Source: Jimgerdemannia flammicorona (taxonomy: Eukaryota). Taken from it: a stretch of DNA of 64,000 bases. The position numbers were made by a program, and so were the translations under genes. The DNA lies in assembly GCA_003990765.1 (NCBI GenBank), contig RBNJ01000012.1:1-64000 (forward strand), read 5' to 3'. Shown piece after piece: positions 21,651 through 64,000 of the stretch (position 1 is its first letter; the number at the start of each line of letters is the position of its first letter). Below the pieces are notes generated by a model. That model ran no database searches and was not told the DNA's origin. It worked only from the letters and a program-made list of their open reading frames with translations.

Positions 21651-21717
21651 TAATCACATCCCTCTTTGGCTTCGCCATCAATTCGACACCTGCCTCTACC
21701 AATACACCCATACTCGA

Positions 21718-23679: not shown

Positions 23680-23776
23680 ACTGACGTTTTAAGACACAAT
23701 GGCAAGAGAATATGTTACCGACATTGGATTCTGTGAAAATGCGAAATTTAAGATTACAGACCGAAAGTATTTGTAT
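23680..23776 (-). pseudogene. 5' end remnant of an inverted MG-N family copy
   Basis: gacgtttt...ggcaagagaatatgttacc...attggatt...aaaatg...ttacagaccga matches 14749-14865. Confidence 0.6.
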
Positions 23777-33811: not shown

Positions 33812-33823
33812 ACATTTATATCC

Positions 33824-36800: not shown

Positions 36801-37459
36801 AGACAGGTCCACTTAAGAGGTGGCCAGTTGGTTGGCAGAAGGCTGGGTTTGGAGAAGAGTGAGAGTGGGGTCAGGTTTGGGGCTGGGGGACCTCACTACT
36901 TAAGATTGCCCCACCTAAGTTCTGGGTGGAGTGGTGGCAATTTTTGTAGAGGAATGTCATACTGGGGTATAGGATGGGGAGGATGGTGGATGAAGGTATA
37001 AAGAAATGTAAGTGGTGCTGTAAGCTGGATGGGAGAGTGGTGCAGATGCCAGAGCATGTTCTGGTGGCCTGTCCAGGGGTTGAAGGATTTTGGCAGACAT
37101 TAGAAGATTATTGGGGGGAAGAGAGTGAGCAGGCAGAGGGCCCAACTTGCCAGGTAATCAAGCATCAACTGGTGGGAGACATTGGGGATGTCTGGGGTGG
37201 CCTGGGTCGGATTATTGGCATCTGAATACTGATGGCAGTGCACTGGTGATGGGTGTTCAAGAGAGATCCTTGGATGGGAATTGGAGAATTGGTGGATCAG
37301 TGGAAGGGGTTACTTTTGGAAGTAGTGCAAGGGTGATGGTATCAGGGGAAGAGGCACCAGTTGGGGGCCATGAAGAAGGTGTTAGACATTGTCCAGAGGA
37401 GTCAGGGGTACCTTGTACTTGGTGAGAAGGAGGTGAGGTGGAAAGAAGATATAGGCTGA
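33824..37459 (+). pseudogene. LINE ORF2: APE endonuclease, RT, C-terminal CCHC finger; disrupted
   Basis: LLNVNGL, DIVFLQD, EDFN, RIDWIL, SDH; SPGEDRLPWEF, NWRPI.LLN, FLDQEKAYDRV, QGDP, FVDD; CKWC...PEHVLVAC. Confidence 0.92.
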
Positions 37460-37582
37460 AGAGCTCTTCCTTGAACTATGATTTAATAGTCGAGGGTTGG
37501 ATTCATTGTTGTTCTAAGGTAGTCAATGGGATACATGGATAGTGTAATTCTATAGACTAGTGGAATAAAGGAGTCCAAGTGA

Positions 37583-37667
<85 letters not shown>

Positions 37668-42394: not shown

Positions 42395-42950
42395 TAGTGC
42401 TCCTAATGAGTCAATTTAATCTGGATTGAATTCAGATTGTTTCGGATTGAATCCCATCTGGATCAACTTTGATGGGATTCGAATCTCATCTGGATGGATT
42501 CAAATAACCATTATTTTGATTTCCAAATTAGATAATTAAATGTTTACATCAATAACTTGATGAATAATCATCTAAATTTGATGATCTTGGTGTCATTTGA
42601 AAGCCCTTAATAAGACCTATCTAATGATGCTGAGAACATTGAAATCAGATCATATATTGTTGAGGTATAAAGGAAAATGTCTGAATAGCCAATTTTGGAA
42701 ATTTCATCAAATAGAATGTTTTCCTTAATATCTCGGGAATGCATAATCCTATTTTAATGTTTTTGATATCATTGGAAAGGTCTTATTAAGGGCTTTCAAA
42801 TGTCACCAAGATCATCAAATTTAGATAATTATTCATCAAGTTATTGATGTAAACATTTAATTGTCTAATTTGGAAATCAAAACAATAGTTGATTCAAATC
42901 CATCCAGATGGGATTCAAATCCCATCCAGATTGACTCGTTTGGAGCACTA
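42395..42950. mobile_element. hAT-like MITE, nearly fully palindromic
   Basis: TIR tagtgctcctaatgagtcaat / attgactcgtttggagcacta; 8-bp TSD gtgactat / gtaactat; long internal inverted arms. Confidence 0.88.
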
Positions 42951-45900
42951 GTAACTATACTTGATCCTTCTTCCATATTTTAGAGATCATTATCTTCTGG
43001 TAGTATCCAGTGAGAGTCATCTCAGAAGATGAGTTCAGAGAGTTCCTCCTATTCAGAATCTTCTTGTTCAGAGGTTTCTTCTTCAGATATATCTTGACTC
43101 TAGATTGCTTATACTTCTGCAGCTTTAGTTGTCATTATCTTTAGAGAGTAGTTGCACTTTTTCTTTTCTTTACTCAGAGTAGGCTATACTAGATAAATTT
43201 CTTTTTCCAAAAATCTTAGAGGAATGTTCAGAATATGTATGTCTTTTGAGACAGATGGAATATCCTATAACTTATTCTGCAATAGCTCTAATTATGACAG
43301 AGATAGTATACTTGTCTCATATATTATCTTCTGGTCTATCAACTACTAGGTTGATTTATGGGTTGAGTCTGAGATCATTTTTATCTTTAGATTCTTCTTT
43401 TTTCTCTATAGTAGATTTTTTACTATTAATATATTCTTTCTGAATAGTGATCTTCTTCTCTTCTTTGATTACTTATAACTACTCACCTTGATTCTATATT
43501 TCTTTCCTCTATAGTCAAATTTGAGCTCTTATTGATCAATCTCAATAACTATATTTATTTCCTTCATCTAGTTGATACTAAGGATCATATAATAAATAAT
43601 AGCTTTAGTAATAATAGCTTTTGAAATAGAGAACTGAATGGGTCTGAGAGAGATAGTGATATTTTATACTTCTCCAAGGGGTTAGGTTTGGCCTCTATTT
43701 GCTACTATAATACTGAGATTAGATAGTCTATTAATAGACTCCTAGAGAGTTTCTAGAAATGATTAGGCAATAATACAGATAGCTATACTTATATAAATAA
43801 GGATTTTCACCTTTTGTCCTCTAATATCTCTATACAGATATGTGCTGACATGTCTTTCTATAGTTTGAATAATAGTTAATACTAGTTCTTATTATGGAAT
43901 TGAAACTTGACCAGTACTGGACCTAGTGGTTCTCAATAGTTAGTTTTGAACTCCAGCAGATATCAGTTATAGAAATTGCAGGACAGAAACTTCCATCTTA
44001 GCTTCTTAAATCTTTTGTCAGACTTAATTATAGATATCTCTGGGTATAGTCTTTGGGGTATACTTCATCTTAGGCTTCAGAATAGTAGACTCTTATTTAT
44101 CTTACTTTATTTCTTTATTCTCTAATAGTAGTTCATTTGTTTCAAAGACAAAATATGAGAGAGACCTATGAGGTATCTCAACTTGTTTCTCTTTGTCTCC
44201 TTTATCTTCTTTTTGGATGATTCTTCTACTGATATTTTGGAATGGTCTTCTTACTGGTATTTTCTTTTTTTTAGCTAGGTATACTGTTTTTCTAGTAATA
44301 ATCTTAGTTAGATATAAGTCTTAATCACTGTAGTCTTCACTATTACTTTCTTCTTCAAAGTCTCCAATAGAGTGAGCTTTAGTCTTCTTGTACTAGATTT
44401 CATACTTATAATTTGATAGCTCTAAGTTCCTTCAATTACTTCTTCTATTATCACATTCTATAGCTTAGTATCTAAATTATCTACTGTAAAAACATTGAAC
44501 CTGGGCTCTGTCTCAGACTGGGTATCTTCTTTCTTCTTATGGCTGATAGTTTCTATTATCTCTGAGTAGATAGTCTTGATTTTTTCATAATATATACCCT
44601 CTGTTGTCCTGTGAGTAGCTCTAATTTTTATGTGAGTAAGTTTTTGTTTTTCTCAACCAATCAGTCCAATTAGGAATTGAGGTCTTGGATTTCATTTCTC
44701 TCTTTCTTCCACTTCTTGGCTGGCTTTCCTTCTTCTGGTTTTCCACATTCTTAAAGGAGTCCTTACAGGGTTTTGACCAGAGGTCTTTTTTATTATCTCT
44801 CTTATTATGATCATTCTAGGTAGTTTCTTATCTGATATCAAAAAATCCTTGAGCTGTATCTACTTGTTCTTTAGACTTTCTAATATTTAGAGTATAAACA
44901 TACTGGATACTGTTTGGAGAAATCTTATTCATAAATATTATTAGACCTATGATGCCTTAGTTAGTGGTATTGAACCTAGCTACAGATATTCTTTTTAGGA
45001 TTATTATAAAGAATGCTCTGGGTTATTTTTTGAAATTCATCTTCATTTCCATGATAAATTCTTAGACCTTATGGTAGGTTTCATTTCCTGTATATTTCTC
45101 AATAAGTTAGTGGATTATGGCTTCATATTCTACTTCCCAGGAGGATGCTATATGAATGGCTGTTCTAAGATCTGAATGTACATTATTTGCTACTTAGTTA
45201 AAAATCCCCTTAGCTGGTTCTCTGAGTTGGATCTTGTAGATAGTAATATTTTACTATGCAGAGAGATTCTTTAGAGCTATAATTTCTTCAATTCTATTAA
45301 AGTATTCTCTTGAGTCTTCTTTAGAGTATTTTGCAAAGATTTGCATTGAGGTGGTTATTTTGTCATCACTGTTTTCTAGTTCTAATTCTGATTCTGATTC
45401 TAGTTCTGAATCACTTTTGAAGTTATTGCTAGAGCTTAGAATACTTGAGTATTTTAAAGATAGTATTATTAATCTTGGACAAGGTACAGTAGGTCTGGGA
45501 ATTCTTAAAGAGGGTATTTCTAGTCCTTCTGATTCTGTGGTTGCTAGTCATGATAGTGGTTTGAAGGAAGAAACTTAGAGCTTTTGTGGAAAACCAGGAT
45601 TGTATAATAAGGTCTTCTAATTTTTATATAAGCTTATTGAAGTTTCTGATAGAGCTGTCTGTATTGTCTGATTGATCTGGTGGTAGGTCTGTTAGTACTG
45701 GTTGAGATTCTTCTAATACTGGGTAATTGGTAAGTCTTGAGGTAATTATTTCTCTTTTTGTTTAAATGCTGATGATGACTTGTTCTCCTATGGTAGCAGA
45801 GATTAGTATTGTATCAAATATATCCAGTTTGGCTGTTGGGTTCTTGTGAGCTGAAAAGTCATATAGATTTAAAGAAATCTATTCAGTTGAGCTTTTAAAT

Positions 45901-46033
45901 ATAACATACTAGCTCAATGAAAGTAAATTACAAGATCAGGATTACTATGTGGTTTAGCTTAAGCCCTTAGTTTTTTTGTCAAAAAGCAACAAAATGTTCA
46001 ATAGTTTCTGGTATCCTTATTGGTGTTTAGTAG

Positions 46034-47541
46034 TGTAATGTGCCTGGCTCAATGGAGGCAAATTACAAGGTTGGGGGTTGATGTAGTTTGGCTTGAGCCC
46101 TCAGTTACTTTGTTAAAAAGCAATAAAATGTTCTAAGATTCCTGAGGTCCTTGGTATTTAGTGGTATAATAGTCAAGATCTGGATATCTGTGAGTGGTTT
46201 CCTTATTGGGATGGTTCTCTGAGTGTAGTGGCAATTTGTGTCTTTCCTTCTTGGGTCAACTGGGAATGGTAGAATTTGTGTGTAGTATGAGCAGTTTCCT
46301 TCTTGAGTAGTGGGTGATTTCTGTATAGCATGACAATCTTATACATGATGGTCTGGCAATTTAGCAGTTCTCCTTATGTGATTTCTGTATGATGATCTCT
46401 GTGTAGCATGGGCTTCCTTATACAGGACATTCTGATAATTTGGCAGATAACTCAATTTGGCTTACTGGGAATAGTATGGCATAGATTCTTTGAATTGAGC
46501 TCACTAGGAACAAACTGATAACTCAGATGTTGCAGGTTTTCTGGGAATGCAGATGACGTGTAAATGGCAGATAACATGGATTCTCCTGAATTGGTAGACT
46601 TCTTGAAAAAAAGGTAGCTTCAACTGGGAGTAACTTGGATAGCATAAGTTCTTCCAGATCGGGCTCTTCTGGGAATGTGAACAACTGGTGGCATTCTTCA
46701 GGAAAGAGTTTCTTGGCAAAGTTATGTCAAAGACTGGCTTCATTTGCATGGGGTTACATCATAGACTGGCTCCACTGCGAAGTTGCATCAGAAAGACTGG
46801 CTTGTGGCAAGAAAGGCAGGTTCTCTGAGAATGCAGTGAATAACTTGAAAATGATAGATGACACGGATTCTTCCTGAATCAGTGAAGTTCTTGAAAATGG
46901 TGGCTTATTCCTTAAGCAGCAGATTACTCAAAAGGCAGCAAAGTTCTTCTTTGAACTTGGCAGAAAATCGGCTTTGTATCGAAAAGTGGACCAGAGTGGA
47001 AAGGAGACCAATGCTCAATCTTTAGAGGCTTCTTTGGTGTTTGTATTTCAGACTCATTCTTTATATCAGAAAGTGGACTGGAGTGGGGAAATAAGCTCAC
47101 AATCTCCTAGCAGTGGCTGTAGAGTTCCTCTTGAAGTGTAGCAGGCAGACTTGTCTTTTGCTTCAATTTCAGACTCATTCTTTGTATTGAAAAGTGAACT
47201 GGAGTTGAAATGTATTCTGAATTTCAGACTGAGGTTTATTCACTCTTGTCTCTGGGGTAATTTATACATTGTGGTTGCTATCTGGTTGCTATCTGACTAA
47301 CTATAGAGTGCTATTTATGGGGTGATATTCACTGTCAGAGTGACAGCTACTGTCAGGGTGACAGCCACTGTCAGGGTGACAGCTACTGTCAGGGTGACAA
47401 CCACTGTTCACATTATTTCCTTCTTTGGCTATCTGGTTATTTATACATCTTCTGCAGCAATGGTTGCTGATTACTATGCTGTACTAATGTTCACATCACC
47501 TGATCAGGTTTCAAGATTGCTACATCTTGTAGTTTGTCACA
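46034..47541 (-). repeat. 3' LTR (1508 bp)
   Basis: Direct repeat of 55105-56550. Confidence 0.95.
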
Positions 47542-47580
47542 TCAGCCGCCACTAAAGGGTAGTCTGTCTCAGACTATTCT

Positions 47581-48087
47581 TTAGTCATCATTCCAATAAG
47601 CATAGGCATCTTCTGCATCTATACCTGTTCCATCATCTTTATTGTCTGTACTGGGGTCACTCCATTCTAGCTCTGGATCTTCCTCTTGTTCTTCAAGAAA
47701 CAGGATGTCTACTTGTTGAAGGATACTCTGAAAGGTGGTCTCATTCATCTGATAGATGTCATTGAGGTGGAAGTGAGACTGCACCAGGGCTCCAATGTTT
47801 CATTTATACAGGGTGTAGATTCATTTGGCAGTTCTTACTTCTCTGAGAGTAATTCTGGCTGGGCTTCTTATATAAGGTTGTTCTGTCAATAACTGCCCAA
47901 TGTTGTAGAAGGCTTATAGATAGTGGATCCGAAGCAACCTTTGGGAAATGGCAAGGTTCTCTTGATGCTTCTGGATCAATTGTATGGAGGTTCCTTCAAG
48001 TTGACGAAACTGGGGCAGGGGAATTGGCAGGGCTTAGAAGAAGCTGAGAATGAGGGTCTGGAGGCATTGATCTATCCTCTGAGTCAT
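47581..48087 (-). pseudogene. Accessory ORF downstream of integrase (~168 aa, 4 transition-type stops)
   Basis: MTQRIDQCLQ...AFYNIGQLL...VRTAK*IYTLYK*...acidic tail; a single frame from ATG to TAA. Confidence 0.75.
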
Positions 48088-48094
48088 GGTTTGT

Positions 48095-49050
48095 GCAGGT
48101 ATATCTTGAGGTGATTGATGTGGACTGGTGTTCTCAGGGTTCGTCCATCCATGCTTCTTAAATAGATTCTGGTTCCTCTGATGTTGTGTACAAGATAAGG
48201 TCCTTCCCATTTTAGTTCCAGTTTGGTGGCAAAGTTTATTTCTATCATACTTCTCCAAACTAGTACTTGGTCTCCAATCTTGATCTCCTGATCTTTCTGT
48301 TTCTAGTTATAATACTTCTTTTGTCTTTCTTGGGCTTTGATAATCTGACCTCAGGCTTGATTTCATAACTATTCTGCCTTTTTGAGGAGGTCTCTGAGGT
48401 TCTCATGGTCAGCAGTTCTAGTTTTCTTAGCAAACATCATTTCGAATGGCTTTTATTTGGTGGAGGCAGCAGGGGTGTTCTGAATTTCCCATAGAATTTC
48501 AGGTAAGCAGAGGTCCCAATTGGTAGGATTGACTCAGGCAAGTCCTCTCTTGATGGTCTGGTTCATCCTTTCTGTCATACCATTGGTCTGAGGGTAGTAT
48601 TATGTAGTCTGTTTGAGGTGGATCTTGTGAATTTGGGCATAACTTGTGATTATGTTGTTGATGAATTCTGTACCTCGGTCAGAGATGAGTTCTTCTGAGG
48701 GTCCATATCTGAGTGTGAGTCCATGGAGGAGGCCTACAATGGTTAAGGCATCTGTGATTTCCATTGGAAAAGCCTCAGGCCACTTGGTCAGATGTTCTAC
48801 AAATACAAGGATATATTTGCGTCTTCTTGGTGTAACTGGTAGAGGTCCAATTATGTCTACTCTCCATCTCTGAAAGATGTTGTTTGGTGGTATGATTGGT
48901 TGCAGTGGTGCTTGATAGTTCTTTTTTCCTTGGTATTTCTGGCAGGTGTCACATTTCTTGAGTGTGTCCCAGACTTGTGTTCTGAGGTTGGACCAATGTT
49001 GGTATGTTGTTCGCAGCTTCTCTTCTATATTCACCTGTCCCTAATGGGCT
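48095..49050 (-). pseudogene. Gypsy integrase (zinc finger, DDE core, GPY/F)
   Basis: KKCDTCQ, VDIIGPLP, LISDRGTEF, KWEGPYLV. Confidence 0.92.
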
Positions 49051-49144
49051 TTCTGATGTTCTTTTCGGATGAGATATTCTTGTGCCTTGATGGTCTGAGG
49101 AGCTTCCTTTAGGGTATAGTTCCTCAGGACACCCTTCTTCTGGT

Positions 49145-50420
49145 TCATTGGGGCTGGCGGGAAAGTACATCAATATTGTTGTGGGCTTTTCCTGCTTTGT
49201 GAATAATTGTGATTTTGTAATCCTGAAGGATAAGGATCCAGTGGGCTAGGATTCCAGTAGATTTCTTGTAGTTGAATAGCCATTTGAGGGCTGCATGGTC
49301 TGTGATCAGGGTGATCCTTTTTCCAATGAGGTAATGCTTGAACAGGGTGACTGTCCATATGACTGCAAGACATTCCAGTTTAGTGCTATCATAGTTCATC
49401 TGCTGCTGATTAGTACCTCTGCTTACATAAGCTATCACATAGTGCTGTTGGTCAGGTCTTTCTTGAGCTAGAACTGCTTCTAGGCCATCTTTGGAAGCAT
49501 CTGTATATAAGATGAATGGCTTCTGTAGATTGGGGCACATAAGGATTGGTGCTGTAGTCATGTGGTTCTTGAGTTCTCTGAAGACTTTTTCCTGTGGTTC
49601 TGTCCATTTGAATGGCATTCCTTTCTTGAGAAGGATTCGGATTGGGGCAGCAATTTGGACAAAATCCTTGATGAACCTTCTGTAGTAAGATACCAGTATC
49701 AGGAATGATAGTGTTTCTTTCAGAGTCTTGGGTACTGGCCAATTGTAGATCTTCTCAGTTTTCTTTGGGTCTGCATGAGTTCCTTCTTTTGAAACCATGA
49801 ATCCCAGGAATTCAAGTTTCTGTTTTCCAAAATAGTATTTCTTTGCATTCAATCTCAAGTGATTCCTGTGGGTGAGCTTGAAGAATTCCTCTAGGTGGTG
49901 CAGGTGTTCTTTGAAATTTGCTAAATAGATATTGGAATTGTCCATATATATAATTAGGCAGTGGTGGATCAAGGGGGCATAGACTGAATTCATCATTCTC
50001 TGAAAGGTGGGGGGTGTATTGCAGAGTCCAAAGGGCATTTGGAGATATTCAAACAGTTTTCCTAGAGTAAGGAAGGCTGTCTTTTGAATGTCCTTGGGGT
50101 CCATGGGGATCTCATGGAATCCTGCAAAGAGGTCCATGCTGCTGAAGTATCTGGCATCCTGTAACTGATCCAAAAGGTCATCAATTCTGGGCAAAGAATA
50201 AGCATTCTTCTCAGTGACTGAGTTGAGTTTCCTGTAATCCACACAGAGTCTCCATCCTCCTTTCTTTGGTACAATAAGTATAGAGCTGGCCCAGGGGCTA
50301 GTAGAGGGTCAGATGACTCCATTGTCTAAGAGTTCTTGAATGTACTCTTTTTCGAATGTTTTTAAGTAATGGGGTATTCTATAGGATTTCTGCTAGATGG
50401 GTGTTGCACTTTCTGTATTT
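49145..50420 (-). pseudogene. pol: Gypsy RT-RNase H (365-codon stretch open; YMDN at the YxDD site)
   Basis: DYRKLN, LPRIDDLL, KTAF, MPFGLCN, FILYTDAS, LECLAV, TDHAAL. Confidence 0.95.
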
Positions 50421-50964
50421 ATGCTGTGGTGATATGATGGATTGTATGGTAGATTGCCATAATCGGTGGTGAAGATATCTTGATATTTGTTGAGAAGTTC
50501 TACTAGTTGTTGCTGTTGTTGAGGTCTCAATTCTTCTCCAATGTTGGTGGAAGGTTTCACTGTCTCCTGGGTCGCAGAGGGGCCTTTCCTTTCTTCTGGG
50601 ACCTTTTGCCATTTCCCAATAGGTTTAGTTCATAAACTTCCCTATGAGTTCAGTTGAGAAAAGGCACCAGATGTCCTATGATGGTTCCTTTTGACAGGAT
50701 GATGGTCTCCCAACTTTGGTTGGTTGCTCAGGAGTGTACTGGGTTCATCTTGTCAGGGAATGTGTGTCCCTCTATGTCCAGGTATGGGATATCTTCCTTA
50801 GGTTCAAAGAAAAGGTTTCTGGGGTCGGGTGGTGCAAAGATTTCGAAGGTAGTTTGTTCTCCAGGCTCCAGGATGAGATTCTTGTGCAGTCTGACTGGTT
50901 GCCAGTACACTTGCTGGGGAATATTCCTCTTAAGGTAATTGACTTGAAGGAGATGTACCTCCTT

Positions 50965-51380
50965 CCTGTCTGAACTTCCAAATCCCTTGGCTTGTCTTGT
51001 TCCTTCAGTTAGTTCAGAGACTTCCTGTAACTGTGGAGTCTTGACCTTTATGAAGACTGCTTGGGCAATCTTCTGTCCTCTAATGATTCAGTGCTATTCT
51101 GCACTGCTGTTGTATAAGATAACCTTGATTTTGCCTATATATCCTGAGTCAATAGTTCCTCTTTCCACTATTATTCCTTGTCTGGCAAGTCCAGACCTTG
51201 AGGTCAGTTGGATATAAATTCCTTGGGGTGACTGTATGGCTAGTCCAGTTTGGACCATGAAGGTTTTCCCAGGCTTGATAGATTCATCCTCCAGGCTGTG
51301 AAGATCATATCCTACATCCTTGAGGTGGACTTTGGTCGGGGGTTTGGCCTTGGAGTGCAGCAGAGCATACAGGGCAATAT
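50965..51380 (-). pseudogene. dut: dUTPase domain within pol (one internal stop)
   Basis: All five trimeric-dUTPase motifs: VGYDL, SRSGLA, GTIDSGYIG, KIAQ, RQAKGFGSS. Confidence 0.93.
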
Positions 51381-52699
51381 TCTTACTAAGTTCGGGCTCT
51401 CCTAAGGCTGAAGCTCCACTAGCAGAAAGCCTCCAAGCTCTAAGGTTGAGGTGTGGCCATCTGGCTCCAGTAGAGGGGTCTTGAAGGTAGTTAATTCCCC
51501 TTCTTCCTATAGGGTCAAGGGCTTCCATGAAGTTGGTGGCATCTTCTGCCCATTCTTGGTGGGTTGAATGTCTGATAAGAGCTGGGATGTCTTCTCCCAA
51601 ATCGTAGATCTTGAGGATTCTTTTTCCGGGCTTCTTGGTCGGGCTTTTTCGAATCTGGCTTTTTTGGATCTGGTTTCGGTTATCTCCTTTCTTCAAAGTA
51701 TGCACTGCAACATCATAACTGAGGTGAATCTTCTGGTGTCTGCAGTCTCGGCAGTCAGGGTGTCTTCCATGGTTACAATATCCCATTGCTCAGAAATGGT
51801 ATTCCTGGCTGTTGATCTCTTGTTGTCTTGGAAATCAGTACCCATCTTGGTCATAGGTGGGTGGAAGAGTAGACAAGGGATATATTTCTATCTGGGTGAA
51901 GAAGCCTTATTCTCTAAATTGACTTTGTAACCTTGTGGTAACTTCTTGAAAAGTGGTTGACTGTACAAGTGTAGTTGGAGGTTCTGGTCTCTGGGGTCTC
52001 TGTCTTTCTTGTTGGTCCAACAGATGACATTGATAGCAGTAGTCTTAAGGAGAGTGGAAGATCATTTGGTGTGGACATCTTCTTAGCTAAAAAGCTTTCT
52101 CTTGGTGAGTTTCTTTCTTGGGAATAATGGTGATTGTACTGGGTCCTTCTTCTGTATTCCAAGGGTCATTGTCTTCAGGTGGTGTTCAATGAGGATCATC
52201 CCAAGGAATGAGTTCAGGGACTTCTTCTTCTTCTCCATATGCTTCTTGTTCAGAGACTTCTTGATCAGAAGTTTCTTCTTTCTTAGATGATTCTTGACCC
52301 CAAATTGCTTGTACTTCTGCAGCTTTGGTTGCAGGTGTTTCTGGAATATGTCTATATTTCTTCTTCTTCCTTCTGCATTCTGGGCAGGCTGTACCAGGCA
52401 ATTTCCTTATTCCCATAATCTTGGAGGAGTGCTCAGGACATTTGTGTCTCTTGAGGCAGGTAGAGCATCCTTTGGCTTTTCCTGTAATAGCTCCAATAGT
52501 GATAGAGATGGTGTTCTTGGCCCACACATTATCTTCTGGTCTGTTATCCACCAGATTGATTCGGGGATTGAGTCTGGGATCAGTTCCATCTTCAGATTCT
52601 TCTTCTTCTTCTATAGTGGACTCTTCGCTACTGGCATATTCTTCCTGAATAGTGATCTTTTTCTTCTTCTTTGATTGCTTATAGCTAGTCACCTTAACT

Positions 52700-53060
52700 C
52701 TGTACTTCTTGCCTCAGTAGTCAAACTTGAGTACTTGTTGGCCAATGTAAACAACTGCATTCATTTCCTTCATCCAGTGCCAAGAATCATATCATAGGTG
52801 ACAGCTTTGGTGATAACAGCTTTGGAGATAGAGAACTGAATGTGTCTAAGGGAGATGGTGATATTTCATACTTCTCCAAGGGGTTGAGTTCGGGCTCTAT
52901 CTGCTACTATGATGCTGAGATTGGATGGTCCATCAATGGGCCATTGGAGGGTGTCCAATAATCGTTTGGCAATGACACAGACAGCTGCTCTTGTGTCTTT
53001 GAGGATTTTCACTTTTTGTCCTCCAATATCTCCATGCAGGTAGGTGCTGACATGTCTTTT
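52700..53060 (-). pseudogene. Retropepsin aspartic protease
   Basis: IGGQKVKILKDTRAAVCVI (DTGA mutated); ADR...PLGEV; ILGTG-like C-terminal motif. Confidence 0.85.
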
Positions 53061-53199
53061 AGCTGCTTGAACAGGGATAGGAGCTGATTCTCGCTGTGGG
53101 ATTGAAACTTGGCCAGTGCTAGACCTAGTGGTTCTCAGCAATTTGTTTTGGACCCCAGCTGGTATTAGTTGCAAGAACTACAGGAGAGGGACTTCCATC

Positions 53200-55000
53200 T
53201 TGGCTTCTTGAATCTTCTGCCAGACTTCATTGTAAATGTCTCTAGGCATAGTCTTCAGAGTGTACTTCTTCTTAGGCTTTGGAGCAGCAGGTTCCTGTTC
53301 TTCTTATTCCATTTCTTCATCTTCTGGTGGCAGTTCATTTGTCTCGGGAAGGGGGTTCAGGGAGGTGTTTCAACTTGTTCCTCCTCATGTTCTTCATCCT
53401 CTTTTTGGATAATTCTTCTGCTGATGTTTCTGGATGGTCTTCCTACAGGTCTCTTTCTTTTCTCTGCTGGATAAACTGTTTTCTGGGTTGTAACCTTAGT
53501 GGGGTACAAGTTTAGGTCACTGTAGTCTTCACTATTGCTTGTTTCTTCGAAATCTTCAACAGGATGGGCTTCAGTCTTCTTGTACTGAGTGTCATTCCTT
53601 CAGTTTGCTGGTTCTGAGTCCCTTCAGTCACTTCTTTTGTTGTCACATTCAGTGGCATAGTGTCTGAATTGTTCACAGTGGAAGCATTGGACTTGGGCTC
53701 TGTCTCAGACAGAGTACCTTCTTTCTTCTTGCTGGTAATTCCTGTTATCTCTTGGTGAATATCCTTGGCTCCTCTGTGGTGGGTACCCTCTGTTGTTTTG
53801 GTAGTCCCAATTTTCACATGTAGTGAGTTTTTCAAACTGTCTAACCAATCGGTCTAACTTGGAGCTGAGGTCTTGGATTTCACTTCTGTTCTTCTTTCCT
53901 TCCTTGACTGGCCTTCTTTCTTCTGATCTTTCTTGTCCTTGAAGGAGTCCTTGTAGGGCTTTGACCAGGATATCTTCTTTATCTTCCTTCTTATCATGAT
54001 CACTCCAGGTAGTTCCTTGTCTGATATCAAAGAATTCTTGGGCTGCATCTACTTGCTCTTCAGACCTTCTGATGTCTAGGGTGCAGACATGCTGGGCAAT
54101 ATTTGGAGGAATTCCATTCATGAAGGTCATTGGACCTATGATGTCTTAGTTGGTGGCATTGAACCTAGCAGAATGCATTCTCTTCTGGATTCTTATAAAG
54201 AAGGCTCTGGGTGATTCTCCAAGATTCATCTTCATTCCCATGATGGATTCCTGGGCCTTGTAGTGAGTTTCATTTCCTGCATATTTTTCAATGAGCCAGT
54301 GGACCATGGCTTCATATTCTAGCTCATCAGATATTGCTGCTTGTATTTGTCTTGCTAGTTCGGAATCTTGGTTGTTTGCTGTTTGATGGAAAATTCCTCT
54401 GGCTGGTTCTCTGAGCTGAGCTTTATAGATGGTGATTTTTCTTTCATCTGAGAGATTTCTCAAGGCTGCAATTCCTTCAATTCCATCAAGGAATTCTCTG
54501 AGATCTTCCTCCAGGTATCCTGCAAATGTTGGCAATAAGGTAGCCATTTCATTGTCACTTTCTTCTAATTCTGGTTCAAGTTCGGATTCTGATTCTGATT
54601 CACTTTCTGAACTGTCACTAGAGATGGAGATGCTTGGGTATCCTGAGGATGGTGTTCTGGATCTTGGACAAAGTGGAATAGGCCTAGGTATTCTTGTAGG
54701 AGCTACTTCTGGTTCTGCAAGGGGTTGTGGTAGGGGTTCAGTTGGTGAGATTGGTGAGACTGGTGTAGGGTGTCTGGCTGTAAGGTATTGAGTCCATATA
54801 ATAAGATCTTCTAGTTCTTGTGTGAGTTCTCCAAAATCTCTAGCAGGGCTGCCTGTATTGTCTGGTTAATCTGGTTGGGGATTTTGGGCAGTACTGCCTT
54901 CTGGTTCTGGTTGGGATCCTTCTGATGCTGGGTAATTGGTAAGTCTTGAAGTGATTACTTCTCTTCCTGTCCAGATGCTGGTGATAACTGGTTCTCCTGT
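53200..55000 (-). pseudogene. gag: Gypsy gag with CCHC zinc knuckle
   Basis: LPTFAG..EEDLREFL capsid-like start at 54547; QCFHCEQFRHYATEC at ~53645-53690; 5' limit approximate. Confidence 0.85.
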
Positions 55001-55085
55001 AGTAGCAGAGATTGGTATTATATCAAATGTATCCAGTTTGACTGTGGGTTCTTGTGAGCTGAAAAGTTACATCAATTTGAAATCT

Positions 55086-55102
55086 TCCCAGTTGAGCCCC
55101 CA
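55086..55102 (-). promoter_or_regulatory. Primer-binding site, tRNA-Pro type
   Basis: Minus strand TGGGGGCTCAACTGGGA, 2 nt from the 5' LTR; resembles the canonical tRNA-Pro PBS TGGGGGCTCGTCCGGGAT. Confidence 0.75.
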
Positions 55103-55104
55103 AA

Positions 55105-56550
55105 TGTAATGTGCCCAGCTCAATGGAGGTAAATTACAAGGTTGGGGGTTGATGTAGTTTGGCTTGAGCCCCCAGTTACTTTGTCAAAAAGTAACAAAAT
55201 GTTCTAAGATTCCTGAGGTTCTTGGTGTTTAGTAATATAATAGTCAAGATCTGAATATCTGCAAGTAGTTTCCTTATTGGGACGGTTCACTGGGTGTAGC
55301 AGTGATTCATGTCTTTCCTTCTTGGGTCAACTGGGAATGGCAGAATTTGTATATAGCATGAGCAGTTTCCTTCTTGAGTAGCGGGTGATTTCTGTATAGT
55401 GCGACAATCTCATGCATGATAGTCTGGCAATTTAGCAGTTCTCCTTATGTGGGATGTTCTGATAATTTGGTGGATAACTTGATTTGGCTCACTGGGAATA
55501 TTATGGTGTGGATTCTTTGAATCGAGCTCACTGGGAACAAACTGATAACTCAGATATTGCAGGTTTTCTGGGAATGTAGATGACTTGAAAACAGTGGATG
55601 ATGCAGATTCTCCTGAATCGGCAGACTTCTTGAAAAAAAGGCAGCTTCAACTGGGAGTAACTCAGATGGCATGAGTTCTTCCGGTTTGGACTCTTCTGGG
55701 AATGCAAACAACTGGCGGTGTTCTTTAGGAAAGAGTTTCTTGGCAAAGTTATATCAAAGACTGACTTCATTTGTATGGGGTTACATCATAGACTAGCTCC
55801 ACTGTGAAGTTGTATCAGAAAGACTGGCTTGTGGTAAGAAAGGTAGGTTCTCTGAGAATGTGGTGAATAACTTGAAAATGATGGATAATGCAGATTCTTC
55901 CTGAATCAGCAAAGTTCTTGAAAACAGTGGCTTATTCCTTAAGTGGCAGATTACTCAAAAGGCAGCGAAGTTCTTCCTTGAACTTGGTGGCAAATTGGCT
56001 TTATATCAGAAAGTAGACCAGAGTGGAAAGAGGACCAATGCTCAATCTTTAGAGGCTTCTTTGGTGTTTGTATTTCGGACTCATTTTTTGTATTGGAAAG
56101 TGGACCAGAGTGGGGAAATAAGCTCACAATCTCCTAGCAGTGGCTATAGAGTTCCTCTCAAAGTATGGTAGGCAGACTTGTCTTTTGCTTCAATTTTGGA
56201 CTCATTCTTTGTATTGGAAAGTGAACTGGAGTTGAAATGTGTTCTGAATTTCAGACTGAGGTTTATTCACTCTTGTCTCTGGGGTAATTTATACATTGTA
56301 GTTGCTATCTGGTTGCTACCTGACTAACTATAGAGTGCTATTTATAGAGTGACATTCACTATCAGGGTGACAGCCACTGTCAGAGTGACAGCCACTGTCA
56401 GGGTGACAGCCACTGTTCACATTATTTCCTTCTTTGGCTATCTGGTTATTTATATATCTTTCACAGCAATGGTTACTGGTTACTATGCTGTACTAATGTT
56501 CATATCACCTGATCAGGTTTCAAGATTGCTACATCTTATGATTTGTCACA
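55105..56550 (-). repeat. 5' LTR (1446 bp)
   Basis: Direct repeat of 46034-47541, shorter by one 18-bp unit and a 44-bp indel. Confidence 0.95.
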
Positions 56551-57819
56551 GTAGTATAATTGTTAAATCTAGATATCTATAAGTAATTCAGACAGATTTC
56601 GTAATTGAGACAGTTCTTTGATATATAGATAATTTATATATAGTATGAATAGATTTTTTTATGTAATTTTATAGTAATTTCTATATAGCATGAGCTGGTT
56701 TCCTTATACAATTTCTATATAATGATCTCTGTATAGCATAACAATCTCAATTTTTGTATGATGATATTGGTGATCTGAAATAATATGGCAAATTTGTCAT
56801 TTTTCTTAGTAAGTGATAGGTTGATAATTAGTAGACTATTTGGAAAATATGGATTTTTCAAAAATAGTAGATAACTTAATTAGTGAATAACTCAGATAAC
56901 TCAGATAGTGTGGAATCTTCTAAATTAGCAGACTTCTTAAATAATAATTCAGATGATACAGATTCTTCTAAATTGGCAGGCTTCTTTTCTTAATAAAGTT
57001 ATATCAAAGACTACTTTATTTGGACAAGATTATATTGAGAAACTGGCTTTACTATAAAGGTGTATCTTATATTAAACTGGCTTTGTGGTAAGATATAGAC
57101 AGACTTATTAAATAGCAGCTCTTTCTTAAGTAGCAAAGTTCTTCACTTAAACTTTTGGTAGTAAATCTCAGACTTTATATTGAAAAGTAGACTGGAGTAG
57201 AAATAGAGCAAAGCTTGCAACTTCTCAGCAGTAGCTCATTGGTAGGTTTTTTCTCTAAAGTATATTAGATAATTGGCTTTTATTTTGATTTTGGACTGAG
57301 GTTTTATTTACTCTTATCTCTGAGATATTTATATAAGTTGATTGCTATATAGTTACTATATATATAGCTAACTATAGGTTTGCTAATTAGGGGCAGATAT
57401 TTACTATCCAGTAGATATTTACTATCTAGTAGATATTTATTGTCTGGCAGACATTTACTATCTAGTAGACATCTACTGTCTAGTAGATATTTACAATCTG
57501 GTAGATATTTACTATCTCTTTCTCTTTTTGACTATCTGGTTATTTATATAATTTTCATAGTAATAAGATAACTATGGTATTTATATTATCTAGTTATACT
57601 ATACTGTTTCATACTTCACAATATCTATCTCTTACTTTAAATTGATAATCTTTTGAACTAATTACAAAATATATACTAGATACTTTAATAGTATAGACCT
57701 TTTTGCAGAATTCTATAAGATATCTATAGACTCTAAGAATATTCAAAAGACAGTCTTTCTCACTTTAAGAAACTATTTGAATATCTCTAAATACTCTTTA
57801 AACTCTATAATATACTGCT

Positions 57820-58171
57820 TAGTCCTCCTAAATAAATCAAATCAATTCAAATCAAATTGAATTGGAGATTTTTCAATTCAAATCAAGTTTAAATCAAATC
57901 AAATTCAAATCAAATCGAGGGTCTGATTTAAACCTTATTTTTAGAAATATAATAACTTAACTAAAATACATCCAAATATAACAATCTTTAGCTTGTTAGA
58001 TTTTTCTTATAAGGAGAAATCTAACAAGCTAAAGATCATTAAATTTGAACATGTTTTTGTCAAGTTATTATATTTTCAAAAATAGAGTTTGAATTGAATC
58101 TCAAATCAAATTATACCTTTGATTTGATTTGAATTGAATTAAATTGGACCTTTGATTCATTGAGAGTACTA
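57820..58171. mobile_element. hAT-like MITE related to 42395-42950
   Basis: TIR tagtcctcc..aatcaa / ttgattcattgagagtacta; degenerate 8-bp TSD atactgct / atactacc; subterminal aatca/aattc repeats; interrupts RT. Confidence 0.75.
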
Positions 58172-58681
58172 ATACTACCAATATCTAGAGGATAATGAAC
58201 TCAGTCTATGTTATATTGATTTACTACTATCTAATTATCTATATAGATGATTTTAATATCTATCAGCAAATTTTGAGAAATACTTGTTAAATCTAAAAGA
58301 GTTTTTTTGACTTATCAGAAAGAACCACCTGAGACTCAATATCAAGAAATACTATTTTGAAAATCTGAAACTCAAATTTCTCAGATTTATAATTTCTAAA
58401 AAAGGAACTTATATAGACTTAAAAAAAAAACAAAAGAGATCAACAACTGGCCAATATTTAAGATCTCTAAGAAACTACTATTTTTTTTAATACTAATATT
58501 TTACCATAGAGGATTTATTAGAAATTTTTCCAAAACCTCTACACTGATCTGAATCCTACTTAAAAAAGAAGTACTATATAAATAAAAGAAATTATAAGAG
58601 TAAGTCTTTAAGAAACTTATATACTATATAACTATAGTACTAGTTCTTATATAATCTAATTTTCAAAAGTCATTCATATAT

Positions 58682-60176
58682 TGTAATGGTGACCTCAGAA
58701 TGATGACATCAGTACAGAAGACAGCCTTTCCTTATAAGTCACCAGATCAGAGCATGAGAAGATCATACAGTATATGAGATGAGTAATGATGACCAACTGT
58801 GAGTCATTGTAACCACAGTTCAGATATCTTGAGAAATATAAAAGAAGGCTCAAGGAATCACAGTAGCAGTAACCAATAAGACCCATCAATCCCAAAATAG
58901 CTCAAAGACTTACCACAAACAAAATGCCTGCTGCTTACCAAACCTCAAGGTCAAGGAACTACTGAGGCATCTCAGTTGAAGAAAGGATGTTCCAAGACAT
59001 CAGAAGAGCCATGAGGACCTGCTCAAGAAGGACTCCTAGTGTCAACCTGGATACTACAGATCCTTATTATTATATTCTCTACTATCATAAAATAGAAACA
59101 AGAATCACCATTGCTACTGAATGCCTCCAAATGTGGTAGGAGTATGAAATAGGAAATCTCCTCTACTGAGAGTTCCCACAGGCCAGCTCTCAAGAGCTAC
59201 AAGATGTCACTCCCATAGATATATATGAGGCAAGGATGGCTAAGAAGATCCATCAGATCTTCAGGCATGCACCATAGTCTATCCCCAACTTGGAGTATAT
59301 TAGAGTCTCAGACTTCAGAGACCTGTCATCCCACTATATCAATGCACTAGAAATCAGGGTGGCTATAGAAGCCCAATCCACTATCACCCTCAATAGTGAT
59401 GAAGTAGAAAACTTCTAGCATCTCATCTTTCAAGACAACTCAGATCAATTCCTGTAAGGATTGATCTCAGTATTTCAAGGCCCAAGCATCCAGGTTAGAT
59501 CTCCCCAAGACCTCATATTTGTTTCCTATTTTGTAGAAGAGAATCTCATAGATTGGAGAGCCCCTGATTTCCCTGCCACTAAACATGATGATGTCATTGG
59601 TAATGACATCATTCCACATGACATACATGAGATATGCAACATATATGAAGTATGCAAAACATGAGACCTATGCAACAATAATGAATTCACAGACCTCATC
59701 TCCTTCGAAGACATTCTGACCTCTGATGATGAAGCCTCTATAGTCTTGAACATTCTGCTCTAAGTCCCTTGGTTATACTGAATAATGCCAGCATTCTGAA
59801 CCTGTACAACCATCAGTGCCAACTCTGGAACTTAGCAGTTTTTCCTATCCTGGCATTTTATTTTAGTTATTGAAATTTATATTTAGCTTTATATCTAAGC
59901 AACCATTGAATTATATTTTGTATAAATACCCCTCTTATTTCCTTTGAAATAAAGTCAGTCCATTCAGTCCATTTAGTTCTGGTTCACTTATACACACTTC
60001 CTTGCAAGCAATCTAAGAGATAATAAGACAGTTTAAAGATAAGAAGTTTGAGAACTATAAGATCTTAGGAAGGCACTCAAATAAGAACTTGCTTATAATA
60101 AACTTGAGTTAGTCTAAGAGATACACCTTGAAGAGAATCTGGTGTATTTGAAGAACTCAGCAACCACTACATGACA
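58682..60176 (+). mobile_element. Solo LTR (1495 bp) containing a long degenerate ORF
   Basis: TGTAAT...ATGACA termini; 4-bp TSD ATAT; TATAAA ~59922 and AATAAA ~59948; inserted in the FILYTDAS codons of the host RNase H. Confidence 0.85.
58924..59763 (+). pseudogene. ~279-aa ORF inside the solo LTR, homologous to the Gypsy accessory ORFs
   Basis: A single frame with only transition-type stops; W*EYEIGNLLY...ARMAKKIHQIFRH...acidic C-terminus. Confidence 0.72.
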
Positions 60177-62419
60177 ATATATAGATATCTTTAAGAATAG
60201 TCTCAGAGCTGTCCTAGCTCAAGAAGAACCTGACTGATAATACTATATGATAACTTATCTAAACTGAGCTACTAATAAGTAGTAAGTCAATTATAGTAAT
60301 ACTAAATTAGAATATCTTATAGTTATATAGACAGTTATCTTATTTAAGTACTATCTTATCAGAAAAATATTCACTCTAATAACTGGTCATACTAATTATA
60401 AATAGTTATTTCACTATTAGGACTTTATTGAATTTTTTGCTCACTGGATCCTAATTCTGTAAGATTATAAAATTACTATTATTTATAATGCAAAAAAGGC
60501 TCACAACAATATTGATATATTTTTTTATATAACTTAATAAATCAGAAGAAAAATATACTCAGAAACTATACTCTAAAGAAAGTTCTTATAACTATTAAAG
60601 AGCAGGAAGATCTCATCTGATAAAAATATTATAAAGTCTATTAAGGACAGATAAGTATAAAAGAAAAGCTACAAAAAATATACCAATACTAATCTCATCT
60701 TAGAATATATATAAATTAGAAATATTCTTAAGAGATATAATATCTATTAGAAGTATTAGAGAAAAAGAGTTACCAAATAGTCTGAGGCTTTTTCAATAGA
60801 AATTACAGATAACTCAACTTCTCCATAACCTCACTCTTAGATATAAATCTTCCAAAAAACTTATTTAAGATTATAGTATAGAATTTATTAATAAGTTGAT
60901 CATAACTTCTATATAATTTATAAGATCTATCTGAAAAGAACTATATTATACTATTTCCAAACCAATGATATAATAGAATGAATGATCCAAACCATTAAGA
61001 AAGAACTTACTTAAGTCAATCCTATCAACTGAAACCTCTTGAAATCTTATAGAAAATATAGAATATTTCTATTATCTTTATTAAATAAAAATATTTTAAG
61101 ATAATATTTGCTAAGAAAACTAGAACAACTGATTATAAGAATCTTAAAGAACTCTTAGAAAAGACTGAATAATTATAAAATAAAATCCAACCATAGATAA
61201 TTAAGATATAGAAATAATGAAAGAAGTTCTATAACTAGAAATAAAAAAATTATATAGAAAATCAAAATTAGAGATCAGAGGATCTCAGTATATATTAATT
61301 ATCTCAAGTTATACTTACTACTCATACAATAATTCAGAGGATTGATCAGTATCTCCAGACTCTTATTCTTAGCTCTCTTTAGACTTTATCAGTTTTCTTA
61401 TTCTAGTTCTGTAAAACTAATAGAAGCTATCTTCAATAGATTTAAATATATTAAAAAAACCTTACTCTGATATAATAGCTACTGCAAATTTACTAGCTAC
61501 AGGCTTATTATACTATTGGTGAACAACTATAATATCTCTCAGCTCTAGAATAGATCTATATTAAGAACATCACTAGCCTGATAAGAAAAAATACCACTGC
61601 TGCAGACAGACTCTATATAATTTATAAATAAAATATCATAGTACTAATGCTGATCTAGTTCTCTTTAAATAATATATAAAGAATAAACCTAGCTATCTAC
61701 CAGAGTATCATTAGCTATATTGAAGTCTAATTTCTAGAAGAAGAAGAACTTTTAGAATTAAGTAATCTAGATTAAAAGAAGATAATCATATAGATAATTA
61801 TATAGAAGATATCTATAGATATTAAAATGATAACTAAAGAATAGTTTAGGATAGACTATCCTTTAGTAAGGACTGATATGACAAACAAACACTATAGTAT
61901 AGCTAGTGTAACGTAGCGGACACTTACTCTTGAAAGTATGTCGGATTTCTGTATTTTGAAAACTTGACCGTTCTGACTCTCGCAGAGTCTCTTGAAGTTG
62001 CAGGGAAGGGTGGGTGAGTTCAAAGTGTATCTGCCCGCAGGCTTACTAGTTCCTTTGCTATCTCTTTGCTTTGAACTATTTCGATCTGAGGTTTATTCAC
62101 TCGAAGATACTGGGTTATTTATACAAGTTTGCTAGCTATGAGAGGGTGGCTAAGTAATAAATGAGTTATTTGGACTTTGTTGAAACATTTGGACAATGTC
62201 TAAATGCTATACTAAATCGGGGTATTCGATTTGGATAATGTCTAAAATTTAGACAATGTCTAAGAAATTAGACAATATTGAAATCGAGGACTGCTAACTA
62301 TAATGCTATACTACTTTGGGAATGGGTGTGATCAAGTGTCTGTTCCCTATTTCCTTCTTCCAAATCCGGCTGTACCATCACAACTTCCTCCTGAATGGAT
62401 GGTCTTGTCCCTGAGGCAT

Positions 62420-62881
62420 CTATTCAAACTCCCAGGCTTCAACGGTCTGTATGGTCTTGTACTGTGCGATTTGCTGCATAACTATTTCCCAATGATGTCT
62501 TCTCACTTTCTCGAAGTTGGTGGAGGTTACTCCTCTCAGGTGGTCTATCGCTGCTTCATCTTCTCAGAATAACTTGTGGATCCTTTTGGCAACAGTGATC
62601 TGTGAGTAGGAGAGTTGACACTCAGCAATCCAGTCCTCCTTGGTCTTTGCTGGATCCTGATTGAGCACCTGTCCAAGCTTGAAGTACTCTTGGAATTCTG
62701 CCCGATATTGATAGGCTCTAAAGTGTGAGATCCTTGAAAGATGAGTCTGCACAATACTCTGAATATTCTCATAGAATGGCTCTATGGTCGGAGGCTCGGT
62801 GGTGTGCCATTGTCTTTCGATGGCTCTTTGAGCAGCACTAGTGATCTTGAGTGTCATCGTGGTACTTTTGTTACTGGCCAT
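62420..62881 (-). CDS. Accessory ORF downstream of integrase (~153 aa if the single TGA at 62564-62566 was CGA)
   Basis: ORF 62564-62881 EYFKLGQVL...VAKRIHKLF continues in frame EDEAAIDHLRGVTSTNFEKV...EFE*. Confidence 0.7.
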
Positions 62882-62894
62882 GATATTTCTTGAG

Positions 62895-64000
62895 TCAGTT
62901 TCGGTGAATGGTGGTGGGGATTATTGTGCCTAAGGGTTTTCGTAGCCAAAAGGTAGTCCCTTTTATATCTTGCACAAGGTAAGGTCCTTCCCACTTGGGC
63001 TCTAGTTTTCGTGACCATGAAGCTTCAACCATATTCTGATACACCAGGACTTTGTCTCCTATCTTGATGATCTCCAAGGGTTTGTGGGTCTTTTCTGCAT
63101 TCCTCCATTGTAGTGTCTGCGCCTTCGTTATGTAATCCTCAGCCTTCTTCCTGATTTGGTGTAGTCTCCGTATTTCCATGTCCACATGTTTCCATACAGT
63201 ATCTCCATTAGATGACAAGGTTCCCTGAGAACATTCTTCTCTGAACAGTATTTCTCGAGGGGTAAAGTGGGTGCTTTGTGATCGGATATCCCGGAGAGCA
63301 GATAATGCTATTGGCAGATAGTGATCCCAGTTCTCGTAGTTATCGCAGATCTTAGCAATAACATTCTTGAGGGTCTTGTTGGTCCTTTCTACTTGTCCAT
63401 TTCCTTGAGGGTGATAGGCTGTGGTCCGAATGTGCTGGATCTTGTACTTCTTGTAGAGAACTTCAAAGAACTGGTTCACGAATTCGGTTCCTCTATCTGT
63501 AGTTACTTGTGTTGGGGTCTTGAACCAGCAGATGATTTCCTTGTGAAAGAAATCGGCGATTGACTGTGCATTAGCTTCCATAAGGGGTCCTGCTTCTATC
63601 CACTTTGTAAAAAGGTCTACGATGACAATGATGTATCGGTTGCCAGTCAAAGTCAATGGTAGGGGGCCGATTACATCCATTGCAATGTGGGCGAATGGTA
63701 CTGGTTCTATGTGTGCTGATCCTGAGGCTTGATTTCGTTGGTCTTGTTTCTGTTTCTGGTATTTGTCACAGGTCTTGACGAATTGTCTGATATCTTCCTC
63801 CATCCCTGGCCACCATATTGTTCTTCTTGCCTTGTCGTATGTATTTGTTCCTCCTAGATGGCCAAGTTCGTGTACTGATTTCATTGCTTGCTCCTTCTTG
63901 TGTTCTGGTATGACTAGTAGTTTTTCTTTCTTCAGTGTTTCTCCGTCAGTTTCGAATTGTTTCCATGTTCTGTTTATAATCATTTGTGTCCATTCTTCCA
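62895..64000 (-). CDS. pol: Gypsy integrase (C-terminal part of pol; open frame)
   Basis: HELGH..WWPGM..TCDKYQ; MDVIGPLP; TDRGTEF; GNGQVERTN; KWEGPY. Confidence 0.95.
   Translation of the reverse strand, partial: EEWTQMIINRTWKQFETDGETLKKEKLLVIPEHKKEQAMKSVHELGHLGGTNTYDKARRTIWWPGMEEDIRQFVKTCDKYQKQKQDQRNQASGSAHIEPVPFAHIAMDVIGPLPLTLTGNRYIIVIVDLFTKWIEAGPLMEANAQSIADFFHKEIICWFKTPTQVTTDRGTEFVNQFFEVLYKKYKIQHIRTTAYHPQGNGQVERTNKTLKNVIAKICDNYENWDHYLPIALSALRDIRSQSTHFTPREILFREECSQGTLSSNGDTVWKHVDMEIRRLHQIRKKAEDYITKAQTLQWRNAEKTHKPLEIIKIGDKVLVYQNMVEASWSRKLEPKWEGPYLVQDIKGTTFWLRKPLGTIIPTTIHRN

Follow-up and report, generated by a model that had tools for sequence, protein, structure and literature searches.

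Extra open reading frames (ORFs) of long terminal repeat (LTR) retrotransposons are known in env-like and antisense forms and as ORFs of unknown function; to our knowledge few of them have a defined family, and very few beyond animals and plants have a proposed role. In retroviruses the 3'-terminal cistron is the typical place of accessory genes. Tas (Bel1) of foamy viruses and Tax of human T-cell leukaemia virus (HTLV) are small non-structural transactivators whose genes come after pol/env, at the RNA's 3' end; in Tas, an acidic activation domain is combined with binding to LTR DNA. The sag gene of mouse mammary tumour virus (MMTV), and partly nef of human immunodeficiency virus (HIV), are ORFs inside the U3 region of the LTR. 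Some fungal Gypsy elements are drawn with an 'add. ORF' of unknown function, dUTPase domains occur in such elements of Postia, Phanerochaete and Tuber, and chromoviruses bear a chromodomain at the integrase C terminus, as far as the main text of Novikova, Smyshlyaev and Blinov (2010, PMC2864245) goes. For the dUTPase-bearing LTR elements of bdelloid rotifers, Rodriguez, Kenefick and Arkhipova (2017, PMC5408684) describe diverse ORF3s common to different lineages, of env-like, GDSL esterase and DEDDy exonuclease types. Here we analyse 64,000 nucleotides of Jimgerdemannia flammicorona DNA (assembly GCA_003990765.1, contig RBNJ01000012.1, positions 1 to 64,000 of the forward strand), hereafter the window, and conclude with high confidence that three ORFs in it are inactivated copies of a conserved accessory gene of a dUTPase-bearing clade of Ty3/Gypsy-type LTR retrotransposons, a clade that is probably fungal.

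An initial annotation, made from the sequence alone, had proposed that one uncharacterised accessory protein is common to the three ORFs, citing two motifs in each; translation recovers these motifs at the coordinates quoted. The copies in the window are the following.

47581..48087, minus strand: family-1 copy, in element A; 168 codons with 4 in-frame stops; AFYNIGQLL..TAK*IYTLY (asterisk, stop)
62420..62881, minus strand: family-2 copy, in element B; 153 codons with 1 in-frame TGA (codon 106); EYFKLGQVL..VAKRIHKLF
58924..59763, plus strand: family-3 copy; 279 codons with 7 in-frame stops; EYEIGNLLY..MAKKIHQIF
61338..61772, plus strand: fourth copy (family 1), 3'-terminal in element D; heavily C-to-T decayed

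All three ORFs are pseudogenes by their in-frame stops, and the window copies were inactivated by C-to-T and G-to-A changes. A regular-expression search in all six frames finds the second motif at only these 3 sites in 64 kb. In the family-3 ORF the shared domain covers approximately codons 1-152 and is followed by a C-terminal extension peculiar to that family. The decayed fourth copy that the initial annotation had suspected at 61330-61835 is real (E 1.4e-13 with the full profile) and represents the family-1 ORF of element D, but the minus-strand reading of that interval is empty and the copy lies on the plus strand.

Pairwise BLASTP relates family 1 to family 2 at E 0.057 and family 2 to family 3 at E 0.003; between families 1 and 3 it leaves the motif region unaligned. 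A hidden Markov model (HMM) built from family-2 relatives alone has the family-3 site as its top non-self match (E 0.13) and reaches the family-1 site at E 2.7. Profile-profile comparison with hhalign, the check that had been suggested for this claim, gives significant similarity between the families: E 8.8e-5 and a probability of 60% for families 1 and 2, E 2.2e-4 and 45% for families 3 and 2, and E 6e-3 and 6% for families 1 and 3, with one register shared by all three alignments. Column shuffles matched the observed score in 0 of 55 trials for each of the three pairs, and with one profile reversed as a control, families 3 and 2 reached 25.0, compared with 33.0 observed. A profile restricted to 31 members outside all three families, searched against the six-frame translation of the window, matches the family-2 site at 62435-62851(-) with E 4.7e-21, the family-1 site at 47632-48087(-) with E 9.5e-16 and the family-3 site at 58924-59379(+) with E 5.8e-15. 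The same outgroup-only profile finds the fourth copy at 61416-61754(+) with E 5.4e-7 (the full profile extends this match to 61338-61772), and beyond the three ORFs and this copy it has no window match below E 1. As judged from these comparisons, the three ORFs are homologous members of one non-env protein family, and the match of the outgroup-only profile to all three upholds the central proposal of the initial annotation. The accessory proteins are ~15-20% identical between families, and in a FastTree tree, built from 143 columns without support values and covering 46 members plus the window's 3 copies, the latter fall in three well-separated clades.

For each family, a word-indexed search of 5.8 billion proteins returned intact relatives, all from metagenome assemblies and either unnamed or labelled 'hypothetical protein': nine for family 2 (E 6e-76 to 9e-32; full length 153 amino acids (aa), from M to VEAWEFE), seven for family 1 (E 1e-75 to 2e-23) and four for family 3 (E 1e-111 to 5e-52). 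These relatives are 52-81% identical to the window ORFs; the family-2 window copy is 80% identical to P0005, an intact protein of 153 aa. A joint profile of 15 sequences (A5), searched against 1.84 billion representative proteins, matched 45 proteins at E<=1e-3, 9 of them at E<=1e-10. Two long matches, P0048 and P0062, proved to be tandem-repeat translations and were dropped. The 43 credible matches are 65-342 aa long and form ~43 clusters at 50% identity, and the 13 clusters examined all come solely from metagenome sources. The resulting alignment (A6, 46 sequences) has one layout, in which YYxIGxxL is followed by a variable linker, by LxxxxxxxAxRIYxLFxxxPxAL..L.GV...DF..L and by a variable tail.

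The sole outside locus found, L001, is a 6479-bp metagenome contig reached via family 2; related-locus searches came back empty for family 3 (viral and metagenome contigs) and for family 1 and P0037 (viral contigs). Between the window family-2 copy and L001 the proportions of nonsynonymous and synonymous differences (pN and pS) are 0.20 and 0.80, the latter saturated. The ratio of 0.25 lies well away from the value near 1 against which the gene was to be checked, and the difference between pN and pS points to purifying selection.

Comparison with described families was negative throughout. Pfam has no match in the three window ORFs, and among the 46 members at E<=0.1 only 19 weak rows, each matched by 1 of 46. 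The accessory family has no match in PHROGs, a sequence-profile search of the PDB reached at best E 0.18, to HES-1, and the ESM Atlas returned just unnamed or unrelated clusters, with leads below 0.9 to fungal hypothetical proteins. None of these searches turned up an already described env or extra-ORF family, the outcome that would have spoken against a new gene. Literature searches likewise turned up no description of the family, with the 'add. ORF' of PMC2864245 compared through the text of that paper. A search among sequencing runs listed three DNA runs of soil metagenomes, all from one study and with small shares, and no RNA run.

The product appears to be a small soluble helical non-env protein, mostly of 105-342 aa. 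The absence of env character claimed by the initial annotation is confirmed in the 46 members: no stretch has transmembrane-like hydrophobicity (maximum Kyte-Doolittle value 1.37 in 19-aa windows) and no Pfam env family is matched. The acidic tails it had noted in two ORFs are also borne out, since the last 25 aa carry a net charge of -4 or lower in 29 of 46 members, and an acidic and bulky-hydrophobic motif (for example VEAWEFE or LELFLDV) closes the sequence in 27 of 46; 17 of 46 begin with MP. AlphaFold2 run with A6 predicts an all-helical protein of seven helices (whole protein, pLDDT 93.2 and pTM 0.84); modelled by itself, the 96-residue C-terminal part is also predicted to be all-helical (pLDDT 94.2, pTM 0.83). 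The predicted layout consists of two long N-terminal helices, a compact helical domain and, usually, an acidic tail with a bulky hydrophobic end; in the model, the compact domain would hold a helix-turn-helix (HTH)-like three-helix core (YYxIGxxL ... LxxxxxxxAxRIYxLF ... PxAL..L.GV...DF).

The elements to which the copies belong, and the insertion that carries the family-3 ORF, are arranged as follows.

46034..56550, minus strand: element A, a complete LTR retrotransposon with LTRs at ~46034-47541 and 55105-56550
62895..63998, minus strand: element B integrase (Integrase_H2C2 and rve); the remainder of B lies past the window end
62375..62392, minus strand: element B purine run and LTR start, AGGAGGAAG at 62392-62384 and TGTGATGG at 62382-62375
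57640..61886, plus strand: element D, a decayed member of the element-A family that is truncated at its 5' end and matches A collinearly over 57640-58677 and 60207-61886
58682..60176, plus strand: LTR-like insertion of 1495 bp, TGTAATG...CATGACA, with ATAT on either flank

In element A the internal order is gag region, dUTPase, reverse transcriptase (RT), RNase H, integrase (IN) and accessory ORF (Pfam E 6.6e-17 for dUTPase, 1.1e-25 for RVT_1, 9.5e-35 for RT_RNaseH and 5.5e-9 for rve). Its integrase ends with ..HLKIYLHKP followed by TGA at 48086-48084, and the ATG of the accessory ORF at 48087-48085 overlaps this stop as ATGA. The ORF stop at 47581-47583 lies ~40 nt ahead of the LTR start TGATGTGAC. 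As determined by tblastn, the integrase and the accessory ORF of element A occupy different frames, which ruled out the idea that the family-1 ORF runs in frame with the integrase tail. The N-terminal extensions of P0022, P0024 and P0034, considered as such in-frame tails, are an alternative-frame reading of the integrase 3' end. Residue 2 is T or N in seven family-1 sequences (the window copy, P0023, P0025, P0026, P0027, P0028 and P0033); codon 2 thus starts with A, and the ATGA overlap may have been kept across the family-1 relatives.

Element B shows a similar arrangement. Its ORF begins at an ATG at 62881 with A at -3 and G at +4, 13 nt after a TGA in the integrase frame, and its purine run and LTR start follow ~40 nt past the ORF stop (62420-62422). 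The integrase frame continues for seven more codons after this TGA, up to TAA at 62873-62871, and the same codon is CGA in L001, so that the ATG of element B would be ~11 nt inside an uninterrupted integrase frame. In L001, which has a pol of the order gag(zf-CCHC)-PR-dUTPase-RT-RNaseH-IN (PR, protease), the family-2 ORF is intact at 153 aa; its ATG, within ACCATGG, precedes the integrase stop by 44 nt and is in another frame. The polypurine tract (PPT)-like AGGAGGAAG and the LTR start TGTGATGG are both conserved there. The coordinates of A and B thus agree with the initial placement of the ORF between integrase and the PPT and LTR, and the accessory gene would be the last cistron of the element RNA, with an ATG that overlaps the integrase stop or lies within 44 nt of it.

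Membership in Ty3/Gypsy is indicated by the LTR pair and the RVT_1-RT_RNaseH-rve order in A, by the full order in L001 and by Integrase_H2C2 and rve in B. At its C terminus the integrase of A shares 37% identity with its counterparts in B and L001 (208-217 aa aligned; E 7e-37 and 2e-40). The IN cores of A and B are 32% identical over 132 aa and the RT/RNase H regions of A and L001 44% over 365 aa; by these alignments, A and B are distinct Gypsy element families. With ~15-20% identity in the accessory protein compared with 32-44% in pol, the accessory gene has diverged more rapidly than pol, and its distribution would be in keeping with inheritance from a shared ancestral element.

Several further observations concern these elements and L001. 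A dUTPase domain stands between protease and RT in both element families (window 51097-51786(-), E 6.6e-17; L001 837-4619, E 2.9e-28). The nucleotides encoding HLK(I/R)Y in the integrase read ..SPQD.. in a shifted frame (L001 5795-5840, window 48088-48126), and a similar string recurs further downstream in L001. At 6400-6479 of L001 an 18-nt unit is repeated at least 4 times in the LTR region; periodic ORF translations (VRVTAT..., RYLLSS...) at 47322-47555, 56349-56582 and 57380-57571 point to similar LTR arrays in the window. The interval 39432-56550 holds two element-A-family copies in tandem with the LTR at 46034-47541 in common; of the two, the upstream one (A') breaks off at 39432 and has neither the integrase C terminus nor the accessory ORF. 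At 56693-57564 a decayed element-A-family LTR, oriented as the LTRs of A, adjoins the 5' LTR of A, with the truncated beginning of element D on its other side.

The insertion at 58682-60176, which contains the family-3 ORF, interrupts the RNase H of element D. It starts with TGTAATGG, resembling the LTR starts of B and L001, contains no internal LTR pair and has no second copy within the window; TATAAATA (59921-59928) and AATAAA (59948-53) lie downstream of the ORF. These features are weak pointers, from one copy in AT-rich DNA, to a solo LTR with an ORF in its U3. If so, the family-3 ORF would still be the last cistron of the RNA, and the PPT would lie upstream of it.

How the protein might act is suggested by gene position and by weak structural neighbours. 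Because the ATG lies at the integrase stop in another frame, translation probably occurs by termination-reinitiation following pol or from a subgenomic RNA. In searches with the predicted C-terminal domain the top rows include many HTH DNA-binding domains, among them sigma region 4, DeoR, CENP-B and XRE (VIA Z <5), with Z of 4.7 for the VirB core, 4.4 for P1 ParB, 3.8 and 3.7 for KorB and 3.7 for SopB; several HTH matches superpose on the first ~48 residues at 1.7-2.7 Å. Among the 50 BFVD rows listed, the highest query-normalised TM-score (TMq), 0.41, belongs to a phage protein of DUF3102 (probability 0.54, E 2.4), with a root-mean-square deviation of 5.2 over 105 columns. Such neighbours give hints of an HTH-type core in the model. 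That core would bind nucleic acid, most probably LTR DNA of its own element, the acidic tail would recruit host factors, and the protein would act as a transactivator-like regulator in the manner of foamy virus Tas. We infer binding, activation and expression mode, and offer this DNA-binding mechanism tentatively, as a plausible but far from assured account. A narrower version of our own, in which the protein is a sequence-specific DNA-binding regulator with a fold new to the PDB, coupled to integrase and in one lineage moved into U3, is unlikely to hold in full. If it were true, a Gypsy clade would have, in a simple eukaryote, an equivalent of Tas and other transactivators of complex retroviruses, and an ORF in U3 would let solo LTRs go on encoding their regulator.

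A number of observations weigh against the reading of the ORFs as an accessory gene of one Gypsy clade with a DNA-binding product. The claim of three different LTR-retrotransposon families stands for A and B, which are distinct, but the family-3 ORF sits in an insertion without adjoining pol, and pol linkage is seen for two window families and one outside locus. The leave-out test is transitive and not fully independent, because its 31 outgroup members were recruited with a profile containing the three families. Fold searches with the whole model reached at best E 0.72 (PDB) and 0.52 (BFVD) in Foldseek and Z 4.8 in VIA, and those with the C-terminal domain E 3.9 and Z 4.7; the Foldseek threshold of E<=0.001 was reached in neither PDB nor BFVD, and VIA itself warns that helical models commonly exceed such Z scores by chance. 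At E<=0.1 none of 46 members matches a Pfam HTH family, and a cluster of K/R resembling a nuclear localization signal occurs near the N terminus in only 3 of 46.

The same data can be read differently. The accessory protein might be an integrase-linked targeting or tethering cofactor that steers the pre-integration complex via its HTH-like core and acidic tail, expressed in step with Pol by termination-reinitiation or as an IN fusion by frameshifting. The start of the ORF overlaps or abuts the IN stop in all three pol-linked loci, placing it at the exact position of the chromodomain in chromoviruses, and the integrases end at a GPY/F-type C terminus without a chromodomain (Integrase_H2C2 and rve only in Pfam); the predicted HTH-like core would also suit such a role. 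Against this, the ORF is in a frame other than that of IN in 3/3 loci, with its own ATG in good initiation context, an IN fusion is seen in none of 43 credible database matches (65-342 aa, most from short source contigs), and the LTR-like insertion holds the family-3 copy by itself. We regard the cofactor role as somewhat improbable.

An accessory role without DNA binding, such as RNA binding or export, silencing suppression (the anti-silencing idea of the initial annotation) or assistance in Gag assembly, would suit a conserved, soluble, helical protein that matches no known family and is encoded where retroviral accessory genes typically lie, and one weak capsid (CA)-like fold row (MOAP1, Z 3.5) is among the matches. 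Nothing specific favours any of these roles, however, and HTH DNA-binding domains are the commonest of the weak fold matches; a role of this kind is rather unlikely. Chance or compositional likeness of unrelated ORFs, or functionless open frames, would accord with the non-significant pairwise BLASTP, with hhalign probabilities of 60, 45 and 6% and with a reversed-profile score of 25.0 against 33.0, but is contradicted by outgroup-only profile matches at exactly the three ORF sites (E 5e-21 to 6e-15), by pN 0.20 versus pS 0.80 and by the AlphaFold confidence (pLDDT 93), as well as by 0/55 shuffles per pair and intact relatives at 52-81% identity, and is very improbable indeed.

The decay of the copies was compared between positions 38000-45900 and 57600-61900 and element A at 47542-55104. 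C-to-T or G-to-A changes make up 911 of 1506 substitutions between A and A' and 332 of 486 between A and D, and 428 of the 911 changes between A and A' show CpA preference. The pattern resembles repeat-induced point mutation (RIP), which explains the AT-rich blocks (GC 25-32%). Taken with the presence of dUTPase in Gypsy elements of fungi (PMC2864245), it points to a fungal host, though LTR elements with dUTPase occur in bdelloid rotifers as well (PMC5408684). The relevance that the initial annotation saw in C-to-T damage comes down to changes of this kind having inactivated the window copies. Elsewhere in the window, GC skew is very strong block by block, at -0.2 to -0.5 from 18 to 32 kb and +0.29 to +0.46 from 32 to 38 kb, with GC content normal throughout. 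None of 14 large ORFs between 1 and 40 kb has a useful Pfam match, and the large ORFs at 18000-38000 gave no Pfam family.

Read as copies of a conserved accessory gene, the ORFs define one family, without a Pfam model or a significant match among solved structures, that is tied to a fixed place in its element. This fixed position, purifying selection and a confident predicted structure together make the question of function directly testable, and a protein of this small size suits binding, reporter and structural studies. For fungal genomes, whose repeats are as a rule masked, the family profile can serve to annotate the gene. If the gene regulates LTR transcription or integration, accessory regulators would not be confined to complex retroviruses. 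Termination-reinitiation in a eukaryotic retroelement also has a candidate example here, in the ATGA shared by the integrase stop and the ORF start.

Among known systems, the ParB/KorB/VirB/SopB HTH domains and DUF3102 come closest in structure, if only weakly, to the modelled C-terminal domain; they are, however, bacterial and phage families that stay below significance and have no sequence-profile match, and at E<=0.1 none of 46 members matches a ParB/KorB-type HTH or DUF3102 in Pfam. With sag and nef the family-3 copy shares a position wholly within an LTR-like unit, upstream of a TATA-like motif, whereas no relationship exists and the assignment to U3 rests on one solo insertion and AT-rich motifs. 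The chromodomain of chromoviruses is similarly an accessory module at the 3' end of pol, there at the integrase C terminus, according to the text of PMC2864245; the accessory gene, by contrast, forms an ORF of its own, with a separate ATG, a different frame and an all-helical predicted fold, and a chromodomain match in Pfam is found neither in the three window ORFs (E<=1) nor in any of 46 members (E<=0.1). The 'add. ORF' of PMC2864245 is likewise an extra ORF in fungal Gypsy LTR retrotransposons, but the text of that paper gives neither its sequence, position nor family, and the accessory family may overlap it, as far as a comparison by description goes. Bdelloid ORF3s, too, are third ORFs in different lineages of dUTPase-bearing LTR elements, whereas none of the Pfam families of those ORF3 types (PMC5408684) matches any of the 46 accessory members. 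With Tas/Bel1 and Tax no sequence or fold relationship was found (Pfam, 46 members; PDB and BFVD), and the host element here is without env; the likeness lies in a small non-structural gene at the 3' end, and by this analogy Tas serves as our working model.

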